From an uncultured Acidobacteriota bacterium (GTDB lineage: Bacteria > Acidobacteriota > Blastocatellia > RBC074): a DNA stretch of 64,000 bases. The DNA is taken from positions 192,001 through 256,000 of the forward strand of contig CAWCKY010000001.1 of the NCBI GenBank assembly GCA_963796275.1. The letters run 5' to 3'. Positions 25,472 through 33,597 of the stretch are shown here, piece after piece. Within the stretch, counting starts at the first letter, position 1; every line of letters starts with the position of its first letter. Made by a program: the position numbers and the translations under genes. Below the pieces are notes generated by a model, which saw nothing but the letters and a program-made list of their open reading frames with translations, ran no database searches and was not told the DNA's origin.

Positions 25472-26026
25472 ATGAAAGACTGGGATCTCTTCTATAAATG
25501 GCTGAACCCTGATCCAGACCTCGCAGCGTCTGAATACACGAGGCTTCGACGCCTGCTGATCTCCTTTTTCAAAGGCCGGTTTTGCGCCGACGCCGAAGGA
25601 TTGGCCGATCAGACGATCGAGCGGGTCGCACAACTGCTGCCCAAATACGGTAATGAACTGCCCAGCTACCCTCGCCGCTTTTGTTATGGTGTCGCCCGAT
25701 ACATTTATAAAGAATACTTGCGCAATGAAGTTTCCAGGAATACAGGGGAACTGCCTGACTTATCGCCTGCCACCTATGATTCCGAGTTGGCCGTAGAGAA
25801 AGAGGCGTTGGACAGGTGTCTTCATCATTGTTTGGGGGGGCTCGACAACCAGAAACGGGAAATGTTCATTCGCTATTACCTTGTCAGCTCGGAAGAGAAG
25901 AGCGTTCTTCACCAAAAGATGGCCGAGGAGATGGGTATCTCGATCACTGCGCTGCGCCTGCAAATACTTCGTATCAAAGAGAAACTGCGTGCCTGCATTA
26001 CTGAATGTCGGCAGCGGGAGGGTTGA
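25472..26026 (+). CDS. ECF-type RNA polymerase sigma factor
   Basis: Region 2-like LRRLLISFF...DAEGLADQTIERV and region 4-like CLGGLDNQKREMFIRYY...MAEEMGISITALRLQILRIKEKL; 184 aa. Confidence 0.8.
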   Translation: MKDWDLFYKWLNPDPDLAASEYTRLRRLLISFFKGRFCADAEGLADQTIERVAQLLPKYGNELPSYPRRFCYGVARYIYKEYLRNEVSRNTGELPDLSPATYDSELAVEKEALDRCLHHCLGGLDNQKREMFIRYYLVSSEEKSVLHQKMAEEMGISITALRLQILRIKEKLRACITECRQREG

Positions 26027-26052
26027 GTTTAATGAAGAGTTTAAAATATAGA

Positions 26053-26082
26053 TGAAATTTTTACCCACCGCCTGTCATATAT
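26053..26082 (+). promoter_or_regulatory. Putative ECF promoter, copy 1 (TGAAATTTTT-N10-TGTCATATAT)
   Basis: Same bipartite motif and spacing as 29936-29965; lies between the sigma and CHAT genes. Confidence 0.5.
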
Positions 26083-26160
26083 TTCTGGATAGCAAATGCC
26101 CATGACGTACCTACCCCTCCCATTTATAAACTAGCTGTAACTTTGGCAAAAGAGCTAGCT

Positions 26161-31571: not shown

Positions 31572-31592
31572 AAGCAGGACAATAGGCTAGTA

Positions 31593-31677
31593 GCCCGCAT
31601 CTGTGAACGCGATTACACATGGACAGATCCTGAATTTCGCTAAGAGCTCTGGGGTTGCGTTTTCACTTGATGCGGGC
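31593..31677 (+). other. Conserved 3' stem-loop after paralog 1
   Basis: GCCCGCATC-t-GTGAA...TTCAC-tt-GATGCGGGC; homologous to 33625-33709. Confidence 0.5.
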
Positions 31678-32380
31678 ACTTTGGCGACAATTGGACAGAG
31701 TGTTTTCACCTGGAGTCCGCAGTCCCGAACAATGTGGACGCGCTCTCACGCAACACTCTTACTTTAAGTCGTACGTGGATTTGTAGGAAAAATGTTAATT
31801 CGAATATTGTGTTGATCAACCTGTTAGGAATATGGAAATATCTATGGGCCCCGCTTCTTCTCAGAATCGTTGATTCTCTTCTTTCATATCATTCATTGGT
31901 TTCCTTAGCTGCCGACAAAAATGTGGCTGGCAATGGCTGATATCCTTCCCAGCTTCCAATAAATAACTTACAAATGGCTTCTGATCTCCTCGCTTCCGCT
32001 TTGTTCCAGAGTATCGCTGGAAATTTCGTGTCGAGATGCATTTTTTTTTCGTAGCTAAGAAGGGTTCGGAGCTGAGACGCATTGACATCACATACAATAG
32101 CCTGATACATCTTTCGCAGGCAGAGTAGTAGATGAACTACTGGTTAGTTGTACTCCATTAGACTCGATGATGTCATACCTATCCGACCTGTAACAGCCAG
32201 TGGGTAGCAGCGGTGTTTTGAACACTCGGCTGAAATGCAAGGGAGATAAGGATTGTGAATATAAGTGTGTTAGCGATCTGTTTTTTCCACGAACCCTCAC
32301 GTTGACCAAAGCTGTAAGCCATTAAGCTAAGAACGAAGTAAGAGTTTATTTGTTACAACCAATCTCCATGGAGGACATGA

Positions 32381-33597
32381 ATGAAAAACCCAACTAACAA
32401 TGATCGGTTATCTTCGGCTGCTAATCGCCGGTCATTTCTCAAAGGAATCGCGGGAAGCGCGGCAATGCTGCCGATTCTCCCACATTCGCTCGGTCCGGCT
32501 CAACAGATGAGCATCCCCGAGTATCTGATGAGCACGTCTCCCTTGATTCAGCAAACGAATCGTATGAGCGTCTCGATAAACCTGTGGAAGTCCAGGGCAA
32601 CACTGTGCGACTTTACCTGGAAGGCTTGATGTTCCTCGCCCTGAATGAGCAACAAAAGCGCCTTGAAGCGGGCATTCTCAATTTGAATGATGGGCATAGT
32701 CTGAGTGTCAGAACATTCAGTCGCGAGTCTACAAAAGCTGAGGTTAATTCCGATGAAGTCTGGGAAAAGGTGAAGGTTGAAACCATTCCCGATACAGAGC
32801 TTCAGCGCTATGATCGGGGTGAGCTCACCGTACTTTGCGATGGAGGTGAATCAAAAAATATAGTCACACCGACGGTACCCGGAAGCCGTGAGATTTGGAT
32901 GCCATTCAATTTGATCCCTGATATTGAAGAGATAGTCGGAAGCAAGGTGACGCTGGATAGAAGCAAGGTTAGGCCGGTGTTGAGCATTACCGGCGGCAAA
33001 TTCTACTCCGTACTCAGGCCCGATCACGTGGAAGAGGAAAAGCCACCAAAGAAAAGAGTAGACACGCGCGGATTTATCCCGAGTTACGTCTTTGAAAAAG
33101 ATCAGGTGGTAACGGCAAAAACTAAGGCGCGTGGAAAAATTGAGTCGCTAGAAGAGGTGTTAAGATTGGGAGTTGCAGCCAATGATCTTTCTGTTCGGTC
33201 GTACACGGCAGCAACTATGATAACTCTGAATAAAGGCGAGGAGCTGGTTTGCGTGCTGAAAAGTGGGCAAGGTGAGCGGAGGGAGCTCTTTAGAGTAAAG
33301 TATGCCCCCAACTGTGAAGCTAAAGTAGTAATAGCGAACGATGCCGCCCAGTACATCAACGGTTCACATGAACATGCTCACACTGGAGAGAAAAAAAGCG
33401 ATCACAGACATTCTTTTCACTTTCTACATTATTACGGAGCCATGGAGGTAATCAATGAGAAGAAGCAATTTCTCCTGGCTAATGAAGAGATGTTAGTGGA
33501 TTTTGTGAATAATCAGATTGGACCTCCACCGCCGCCTACCGGAGGTGCAGATCCCGAATGCCCGGCAGTACGCAAGTCAGGGGGATTGTTTACCTGA
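32381..33597 (+). CDS. Hypothetical protein, CHAT-associated paralog 2, with Tat leader; 1-bp deletion near 32478
   Basis: GGAGG RBS and NRRSFLKG Tat motif. Adding one base at ATTCT^CCCACA puts the leader in frame with the stop-free PTFARSGSTDEHPRVSDEHVSLDSANESYERLDKPVEVQGN of ORF 32584. Confidence 0.78.

Follow-up and report, generated by a model that had tools for sequence, protein, structure and literature searches.

A probable DdvS-DdvA-type sigma factor switch with a zinc-less head and a linked orphan protein family in an Acidobacteriota bacterium

Introduction

A four-gene locus of an uncultured Acidobacteriota bacterium (GTDB lineage Blastocatellia; RBC074; assembly GCA_963796275.1) encodes a divergent extracytoplasmic function (ECF) sigma factor, a large anti-sigma-like membrane protein that ends in a caspase-like CHAT domain, and two paralogous proteins of an orphan superfamily. 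The locus occupies positions 25472..33597 of a 64,000-nucleotide (nt) stretch, termed the window, which corresponds to positions 192,001 to 256,000 of the forward strand of contig CAWCKY010000001.1; all positions given below are window positions. We consider it probable that these genes form a signaling switch of the type known from DdvS and DdvA of Myxococcus xanthus, equipped with a zinc-less sigma-binding head, and that its operon includes a dedicated, fast-evolving orphan gene, which we take as the immediate output of the switch.

DdvS belongs to the ECF sigma factors and DdvA is a transmembrane anti-sigma factor of the tetratricopeptide repeat (TPR)-CHAT kind, encoded in the same layout as the first two genes studied here (PMC6061681). 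According to the same report, DdvA crosses the membrane once and carries a large extracytoplasmic TPR plus CHAT region. A structure of the full pair has been obtained by cryo-electron microscopy, and signal-induced self-cleavage by the CHAT domain followed by RseP intramembrane proteolysis has been proposed for DdvA (PMC11506125). The initial annotation of the window, made from the sequence alone, had taken the layout to be undescribed. This was not borne out, since DdvS-DdvA already has exactly the arrangement of sigma factor plus transmembrane anti-sigma-TPR-CHAT protein, with its structure solved (PMC11506125, PMC6061681). Its idea of a single polypeptide acting as sensor, protease and anti-sigma factor is right in kind and not new. 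What is new is the phyletic range, the zinc-less head, the occurrence of split and fused forms in one genome, and a partner superfamily that is strictly linked to the fused form.

Results

Four plus-strand open reading frames (ORFs) were confirmed in the locus, encoding the sigma factor, the CHAT protein, paralog 1 and paralog 2. The first (25472..26026, +) specifies a divergent ECF-type sigma factor of 184 amino acids (aa), assigned by the NCBIfam model TIGR02937 (sigma70-ECF; 43.4 bits against a cut-off of 42.9, expectation value E 2.6e-11) and by a PHROG sigma factor match (E 3.1e-8); Pfam recovered region 4 only, below threshold. The sigma gene is directly upstream of the CHAT gene (26143..29850, +), on the same strand and 117 base pairs (bp) apart. 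The CHAT protein is 1235 aa long when read from a TTG codon, and its database copy begins at an ATG six codons later and has 1229 aa. Its first 100 residues (26143..26442, +), delineated by homolog alignment and complex modeling, form a zinc-less anti-sigma-like domain. Hydropathy marks a single hydrophobic, probably transmembrane segment at aa 148-172 (~26584..26658, +), followed by a predicted periplasmic TPR region at aa 222-770 (26806..28452, +), which is recognized by Pfam TPR families and by a family profile aligned to the DdvA chain 8rot_B, and by a CHAT caspase-like domain at aa 946-1229 (28978..29829, +).

The CHAT domain matches Pfam PF12770 with E 4.7e-57 over essentially the full model (profile positions 2-287 of 289). 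The catalytic His of the VVHLAMH motif is unchanged in all 25 homologs, and so is the Cys of LSSCQT. In 1235-aa numbering the catalytic-motif residues are H1086, H1090 and C1140, with His1086 encoded at nt 29398-29400 and Cys1140 at nt 29560-29562. The segment at aa 148-172 is the sole hydrophobic stretch in the first 250 aa. It is kept in place in all 25 homologs, where the maximum Kyte-Doolittle hydropathy over 19 residues has a median of 1.83 and is at least 1.6 in 17 proteins, and Lys and Arg are richer before than after it in 15. The topology that we predict places the N-terminal domain in the cytoplasm and the CHAT domain in the periplasm. The annotated composition was borne out: an anti-sigma-like N-terminal domain, a single membrane segment, TPRs and, with its dyad intact, a CHAT domain stand in one polypeptide, encoded behind a divergent ECF sigma factor.

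The His/Cys zinc motif is absent from the first 100 residues of the window protein and of all 25 homologs, and a Pfam search with this N-domain gave no match, anti-sigma models included. The domain is similar to the N-termini of stand-alone membrane anti-sigma factors encoded next to six of nine other sigma paralogs in the genome. We modeled the complex of the sigma factor (10-row alignment) with residues 1-100 (25-row alignment) in three runs, together with three controls. The interaction prediction score from aligned errors (ipSAE) was 0.75 (0.74, 0.76 and 0.75 in the individual runs) versus 0.02 for the best control; the predicted local distance difference test (pLDDT) of the partner chain was at least 82, and at least 85% of the contacts agreed between runs. 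Of 157 solved complexes, 116 attain this mark, compared with 2 of 215 mismatched pairs. Modeled contacts fall on sigma residues 28-80 and 109-176, i.e., regions 2 and 4, with the N-domain wedged between them. This prediction supports the putative binding of the sigma factor by the N-terminal 100 residues, as the initial annotation had proposed.

The window sigma factor belongs to a subfamily with ten members in this genome. Within 200 bp downstream of six of the nine other genes lies one for a protein of 315-382 aa that combines the same zinc-less N-domain with one membrane segment and a small C-terminal domain, and one more sigma paralog precedes a 156-aa ORF of the stand-alone anti-sigma kind. 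A CHAT gene is found within 2 kb of eight of the ten, the window sigma gene counted. The window protein thus looks like a fusion of two proteins, anti-sigma factor and secreted TPR-CHAT protein, that other loci of the genome encode separately. The two nearest paralogs of the window protein, 28-30% identical to it over ~1100 aa, are also encoded elsewhere in the genome. They carry an H-x3-C-x2-C motif ahead of the same membrane segment and share the AR[IVM]TG motif, so that two kinds of sigma-binding head, zinc-type and zinc-less, are combined with a common periplasmic body.

As a separate observation, the genome repeats triads (e.g., loci L015, L017, L019, L020 and L021) of a sigma factor of this kind, a zinc-less membrane anti-sigma factor of 315-382 aa and a secreted TPR-CHAT protein, in variable gene order. 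The triads, together with 29 CHAT ORFs in total, amount to a large lineage-specific expansion of which we found no description in the literature searched; the words CHAT and caspase are absent from the main text of the ECF reclassification paper (PMC7826278).

The two genes behind the CHAT gene proved to be specifically associated with the fused architecture. Among the 29 CHAT ORFs of at least 600 aa in the genome, exactly three have the anti-sigma architecture, and all three adjoin a partner gene, at distances of 678, 522 and 739 bp; of the 26 others, none has a partner gene within 40 kb. The two zinc-type loci are paralogous duplicates, and the three linked loci are not independent events. 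At these two loci the neighbors are adjacent, divergently transcribed ORFs of 258 and 265 aa that show no similarity to the window paralogs by BLAST.

Further fused loci were found outside this genome. Two came from metagenome contigs. In the fragment L013, the end of a CHAT gene that is 80% identical to that of the window is followed by a partner gene. Locus L014 holds a sigma gene, then an anti-sigma-TPR-CHAT gene, then a single partner gene 29 bp on, with identities to the window proteins of 47% for the CHAT protein, 38% for the sigma factor and 32% for the partner. A search of the phylum with the N-terminal 210 aa gave matches in 32 of 400 other genomes, mostly in frames of 270-440 aa, and two further fused genes, in genomes G050 and G034 (loci L055 and L056), each behind a sigma gene of this subfamily. 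These fused genes precede ORFs of 276 or 286 aa, 64 and 140 bp on. Their CHAT proteins are 34-35% and their sigma factors 31-33% identical to those of the window, which gives a range of 31-38% for the same-position sigma factors of L014, L055 and L056; the partners are undetectable by BLAST and are found by profile only. The partner diverges faster than the sigma factor and the CHAT protein.

The remote partners were placed in one superfamily by profile comparison. We aligned with hhalign the partner profile A3 to profile A9, built from four sequences: the 276- and 286-aa ORFs of G050 and G034 and the 258- and 265-aa ORFs beside the zinc-type paralogs. The match had a probability of 96.95% and E 1.3e-10 over 222 columns. 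Earlier hhalign comparisons of the ~260-aa neighbors with fewer sequences were not significant (E 0.15, then a probability of 27.7%), and adding the G034 and G050 neighbors raised the probability to the final value. In addition, when a hidden Markov model made from the four remote neighbors alone was run on 40,916 genome ORFs, the best-scoring non-member was paralog 2 (E 5.5e-4). With these members included, each of the seven anti-sigma-TPR-CHAT loci examined (three in the genome, L013, L014, G034 and G050) has a partner-superfamily neighbor within ~750 bp. In this sample, homologs of the paralogs adjoin every gene of this kind, so that a lack of enrichment next to CHAT genes, which would have spoken against the initial annotation, was not observed. 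Indirect evidence of co-location also comes from metagenome clusters, where the longest-contig sizes of partner and CHAT clusters coincide in five cases (10688, 33227, 44587, 7420 and 39426).

Beyond these genes the related loci share no conserved gene, and their ~800-aa neighbors are mutually unrelated (a MacB-type permease, a spermine-synthase-like protein and UvrD). Near several loci we noticed a second protease of varying family, M91, S8 subtilase, Nal1-like or trypsin-like (L011, 3077-3907 and 13070-15985; L056, 12798-14288; L014, 2918-3976; L055, 4578-5630). A C25-type peptidase stands after the gene following ddvA in Myxococcus, and an M23 peptidase is encoded at 35274-35813 of the window. 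The association is loose and possibly coincidental.

The two window partners are encoded on the same strand behind the CHAT gene, as annotated, and are 64% identical over 345 aa. Paralog 1 (30528..31571, +) has 347 aa and no signal peptide. Paralog 2 (32584..33597, +) has 337 aa from a GTG codon, its frame being open upstream from 32425 (390 aa); its start is corrected below to a position near 32381. Over 337 codons the ratio of nonsynonymous to synonymous substitution rates (dN/dS) between them is 0.36, indicating purifying selection. Neither protein has a match in Pfam, NCBIfam, PADLOC or PHROGs, the partner profile finds nothing in the PDB below E 0.2, and 21 superfamily members searched against Pfam at E 0.1 gave two chance-level matches only. 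At the sequence level we saw no resemblance to Csx30 or to gasdermins, neither paralog having a Pfam or PADLOC match. In the ESM Atlas, feature matches of paralog 1 reached at most 0.86, and the model of the relative P0020 was uninformative (pLDDT 0.28, template modeling scores of at most 0.30).

The close partner family is very rare: it has 34 clusters among 5.8 billion proteins and, with E limited to 0.001, 21 representatives in a set of 1.84 billion. The partner alignment found no related locus in genome contigs and two in metagenome contigs (L013 and L014). Profile A3 found no match in the 400 other genomes of the phylum; the distant partners of G034 and G050 are beyond its reach and were found only by inspecting the neighbors of CHAT genes. 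A combined profile collected 75 clusters of 227-359 aa, all unnamed or hypothetical and none with a Pfam domain, which their sources label Pyrinomonadaceae or Acidobacteria. The conserved residues are two His, one of them in FHFLHYY, together with an Asn and with a Cys in the P-x-C-P element of a conserved C-terminal tail, TGG-x2-P-x-C-P; this Cys has no exception in the 19-sequence alignment A3, and at least 90% of the rows of the 21-sequence alignment A10 have it. These residues hint at metal binding or catalysis, which is speculation.

Three-frame translation revealed a Tat (twin-arginine translocation)-like signal (RRSFLKGIAGSAAMLPILP; 32381..32482, +) that is out of frame with paralog 2. 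The gene begins near 32381, and a one-base frame change at ~32478-32482 severs the signal from the remainder. Five paralog 2 orthologs have the sequence MK-x-PTN-x-DR...RRSFLKGIAGSAA fused in frame, and RRSFLKG followed by a hydrophobic stretch occurs in these five as well as in the shifted frame of the window. The twin-arginine consensus is S/T-R-R-x-F-L-K, and the ortholog signal fits this type. Scores with the NCBIfam Tat model TIGR01409 were 13.3-15.7 bits against a cut-off of 16.7, with 15.7 for the window and no match in three of the five orthologs. In contigs of a relative from a public sequencing run, the frame of the orthologs continues behind 32478. Since two other genes of the window, encoding an ABC-F and a SelA-like protein, are also split by frame changes, an assembly error is as likely as a real lesion. 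Paralog 1, the partners of L014, L055, L056, L011 and L012, and the distant family members lack a signal peptide and start directly at the conserved first strand. Most partners are thus predicted to be cytoplasmic.

Two observations concern the surroundings of the partner genes. The paralog duplication took in ~130 nt after each stop codon: the 3' flank of paralog 1 (31589..31720, +) recurs at ~33621-33750 with ~83% identity and includes a short frame that is conserved, M-x-AITH-x-Q...FAKS-x-GV-x-FS-x-DAGTLA. A small gene, a remnant and a regulatory element are all conceivable here. Also, ~340 nt of the paralog 1 leader (30160-30500) are missing from the related contig L013, and this region contains inverted repeats at 30124-30151/30245-30272 and 30403-30425/30444-30466.

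The locus contains a recurring promoter-like motif. A 30-nt element, TGAAATTTTT-N11-CTG(T/A)CATATAT, has two strict matches in the window versus 0.00-0.01 expected, and these two are among only five in the 9.46-Mb genome. One, TGAAATTTTT-N11-CTGTCATATAT (26053..26082, +), lies between the sigma and anti-sigma genes, and the other, TGAAATTTTT-N11-CTGACATATAT (29936..29965, +), after the anti-sigma gene and ~590 nt upstream of paralog 1. A regular-expression scan of the window added a degenerate third copy, GATTTTTTT-N12-CCGTCATA (25152..25178, +), ~290 nt upstream of the sigma start. The motif recurs in the spacer between CHAT and partner genes of L013, where alignment to the window leaves the motif and the ribosome-binding site as the only conserved islands, and with the same spacing in the sigma-CHAT spacer of L014. 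ECF promoters have the form GAAAT, 15-16 nt, GTC. As a candidate promoter, the motif fits autoregulation with the partner as target, and in this putative role it also fits the annotated view that the sigma factor drives expression of the locus.

A comparison with DdvS-DdvA shows extensive parallels. In both systems a sigma gene is followed by an anti-sigma gene. The product of the latter has an N-domain that is cytoplasmic and sigma-binding (by prediction in the window protein), a single membrane helix and a long TPR scaffold, and it ends in a CHAT domain with a His-Cys dyad. In Myxococcus, too, the anti-sigma gene has a hypothetical gene behind it: MXAN_7287 stands right after ddvA, and its expression changes with that of ddvA (fold change 8.6 versus 8.35; Table 1 of PMC6061681). 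Promoters, putative in the window, are of ECF type, with DdvS sites given as GTAA-n16-CGT (PMC6061681). The systems differ in that DdvA has a CHCC zinc site, which the window N-domain lacks, and in that the CHAT domain of DdvA is reported to lack three helices, whereas at the sequence level that of the window spans the whole Pfam model. DdvS-DdvA controls a CBASS (cyclic-oligonucleotide-based antiphage signaling system)/CRISPR defense island, whereas no CBASS or CRISPR genes lie near the window locus; only a subset of DdvA-like pairs is found near defense systems (PMC11506125). Finally, DdvA-like proteins are reported in the main text of that study for Myxococcota and one Comamonas, with Table S7 possibly listing more taxa, and the lineage here is Acidobacteriota.

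Other known systems share parts of the design. The type III-E craspase (Csx29/Csx30/RpoE) likewise ties a TPR-CHAT protease functionally to an ECF-like sigma factor and adjacent small proteins. However, the window contains no cas genes or CRISPR array; the type III-E sigma model NF041236 gives the window sigma factor 15.4 bits against a cut-off of 100; and the window protease is fused to an anti-sigma factor and predicted to be periplasmic, whereas that of craspase is a cytoplasmic subunit of an RNA-guided complex. Canonical membrane anti-sigma factors that are removed by regulated intramembrane proteolysis (RseA-RpoE, and self-cleaving ones such as RsgI) resemble the window protein in having a cytoplasmic anti-sigma domain, which our model of the window pair wedges between regions 2 and 4 of the sigma factor, a single membrane pass, and a sensor domain outside the cytoplasm that would set off the cascade once removed. 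In the window protein, unlike in these systems, the candidate site-1 protease is a caspase-like domain inside the anti-sigma factor itself. The split triads of this genome share with the locus its sigma subfamily and its zinc-less N-domain, but in them the anti-sigma factor (315-382 aa) and the TPR-CHAT protein, which bears a signal peptide, are encoded by separate genes, and they have no gene of the partner superfamily nearby.

The locus sits in a stretch of reduced GC content, 0.45-0.49 across 24-36 kb versus 0.51-0.59 in the rest of the window, which holds the four locus genes, a transglycosylase gene and the M23 peptidase gene. The remaining ORFs of the window belong to metabolic or housekeeping families only (Pfam, 40 further ORFs). 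No CBASS, CRISPR, cas or other recognized defense genes were found in the window by PADLOC on the four locus proteins, which returned nothing except a TPR match at E 0.045, and by Pfam on the 40 further ORFs. An Rfam scan of 24000-36000 yielded a single chance-level microRNA match, and the window contains no tRNAs. A synteny check for an island insertion found the ABC-F gene alone in common with two same-family genomes, which does not fix island boundaries. Among public sequencing runs, no RNA set with the stretch is listed, and two DNA contig sets cover shares of 0.07 and 0.05 of the stretch and derive from relatives, not from the source organism.

Among the neighboring features, the ABC-F ATPase gene (35891-37835, - strand) is broken into overlapping frames at 37287-37835 and 35891-37333, and its ortholog is one frame of 642-657 aa in two same-family genomes, 70-73% identical. 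That a housekeeping gene is frame-shifted points to possible indel errors in the assembly. A further pair of overlapping ORFs (39498-40497, - strand), read in different frames and with one ORF matching SelA and aminotransferase class V models, looks like another frame-shifted, SelA-like gene. The spacer ahead of the transglycosylase gene holds 7-nt tandem repeats (34056-34215; ATCAACT and variants, ~20 units) with a partly complementary arm at 34011-34045, and a gene cluster with Planctomycete-type PSD/PSCyt domains (DUF1595, 1592, 1588, 1585, 1552, 1549, 1553 and 1501) extends over 176-9627.

Discussion

The features of the locus are probably best accounted for by a DdvS-DdvA-type switch that has a zinc-less head and a dedicated partner gene as output. 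At rest, the 1235-aa protein would hold the co-encoded ECF sigma factor by its zinc-less helical N-domain in the cytoplasm, cross the membrane once and expose the caspase-like TPR-CHAT module in the periplasm. By analogy with the DdvA model, a signal in the periplasm would switch on the CHAT dyad or cause loss of the bulky TPR-CHAT domain by another route, whereupon intramembrane proteolysis would free the sigma factor. The freed sigma factor would then read the three TGAAAT-N15-G(T/A)CATA sites of the locus, and expression of the sigma, anti-sigma and partner genes would rise. The partners, as a dedicated third component and obligate neighbor of this kind of anti-sigma factor, would most likely be the immediate output; in most loci they would stay in the cytoplasm, and in the paralog 2 clade they would be exported by the Tat route.

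Several observations weigh against this interpretation, in which every step of the mechanism is one that we infer from sequence. The score of the modeled complex may partly reflect memory of solved sigma/anti-sigma complexes, which such pairs resemble. The hydrophobic segment of the window copy is weak, with a Kyte-Doolittle 19-residue maximum of 1.42. Regarding expression, the window scan found no motif copy ahead of paralog 2, the one ahead of paralog 1 is ~590 nt away from its start, and because TGAAAT and CATATA resemble -35 and -10 hexamers, a housekeeping sigma factor could equally read the motif. Paralog 2 is frame-shifted in this assembly. The relationship to DdvA is also distant: phmmer searches with the full-length protein, and with its CHAT or N-terminal part by itself, gave no DdvA match, and a profile of the juxtamembrane stretch alone finds nothing. 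The profile of the 25-homolog family does reach the DdvA chain 8rot_B (991 aa; E 3.6e-10), in the TPR scaffold only (profile positions 173-355 against chain residues 106-281) and ranking below generic TPR proteins. With no single-sequence match and a profile match confined to the TPRs, the likeness to DdvA may be one of convergent architecture.

The role of the partners could also differ from that of an output. They might, as the initial annotation proposed, be substrates or pro-proteins of the CHAT protease, cut perhaps at the C-terminal tail TGG-x2-P-x-C-P to release or activate an effector as in the craspase-Csx30 and caspase-gasdermin pairs. The strict linkage of the partners to CHAT-bearing anti-sigma factors only would be expected of substrates, the conserved Cys-containing tail offers a possible cleavage region, and the Tat-like signal of the paralog 2 orthologs would place these proteins in the CHAT compartment. 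However, paralog 1 and the partners of L014, L055, L056, L011 and L012 have no signal peptide, while the CHAT domain is predicted to lie in the periplasm. It is therefore hard to picture a protease-substrate relation in general, although one could still apply to the Tat clade. As the partners also show no similarity to gasdermin or Csx30 models in Pfam or PADLOC, we regard the substrate role as unlikely.

We give even less credence to the idea that the partners serve the switch as accessory regulators instead of being its output, acting as an RseB-like, TPR-binding co-sensor or protector in the Tat form or as a cytoplasmic factor on the anti-sigma-sigma complex. TPR domains usually bind proteins. 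The spacing of 29, 64 and 140 bp between anti-sigma and partner genes in L014, L055 and L056 is typical of co-transcribed signaling components, and the faster divergence of the partner relative to the sigma factor and the CHAT protein is what one would expect of a specificity-determining subunit. Yet such a regulator would have to work in two compartments to accommodate the signal-less and Tat forms, and in two loci the partner gene is divergently transcribed. That the window copy is a decaying, non-functional one, an acquired low-GC island (0.45-0.49 across 24-36 kb versus 0.51-0.59 elsewhere) with a broken partner gene whose Tat-like signal is severed by the frame change, a weak membrane segment (1.42) and ~340 nt inserted into the paralog 1 leader relative to L013, is highly improbable, given that all four long frames are intact, the catalytic dyad is conserved, the paralogs are under purifying selection (dN/dS 0.36), and the ABC-F and SelA-like genes are also frame-split, so that the frame change may be an assembly error.

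Returning to the DdvS-DdvA-type switch with its partner as output, we tentatively raise a broader and rather doubtful possibility. The orphan superfamily might be the missing third component of all TPR-CHAT anti-sigma switches, MXAN_7287 included, as a fast-evolving and possibly metal-binding protein that is sensed, cleaved or deployed as effector. If this were true, a three-part signaling system would be spread across phyla, and the partner would provide a handle on the signal and output of DdvA-type sensors.

Taken on their own terms, the locus and its relatives show that the architecture of DdvA extends to Acidobacteriota, where the sigma-binding head is either zinc-less or of the zinc type, and that a protein family not noticed before accompanies the fused forms and no others. 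This linkage offers a specific candidate for the thing that such switches sense, cut or turn on. The candidate is directly testable in Myxococcus, where genetics and a structure already exist.

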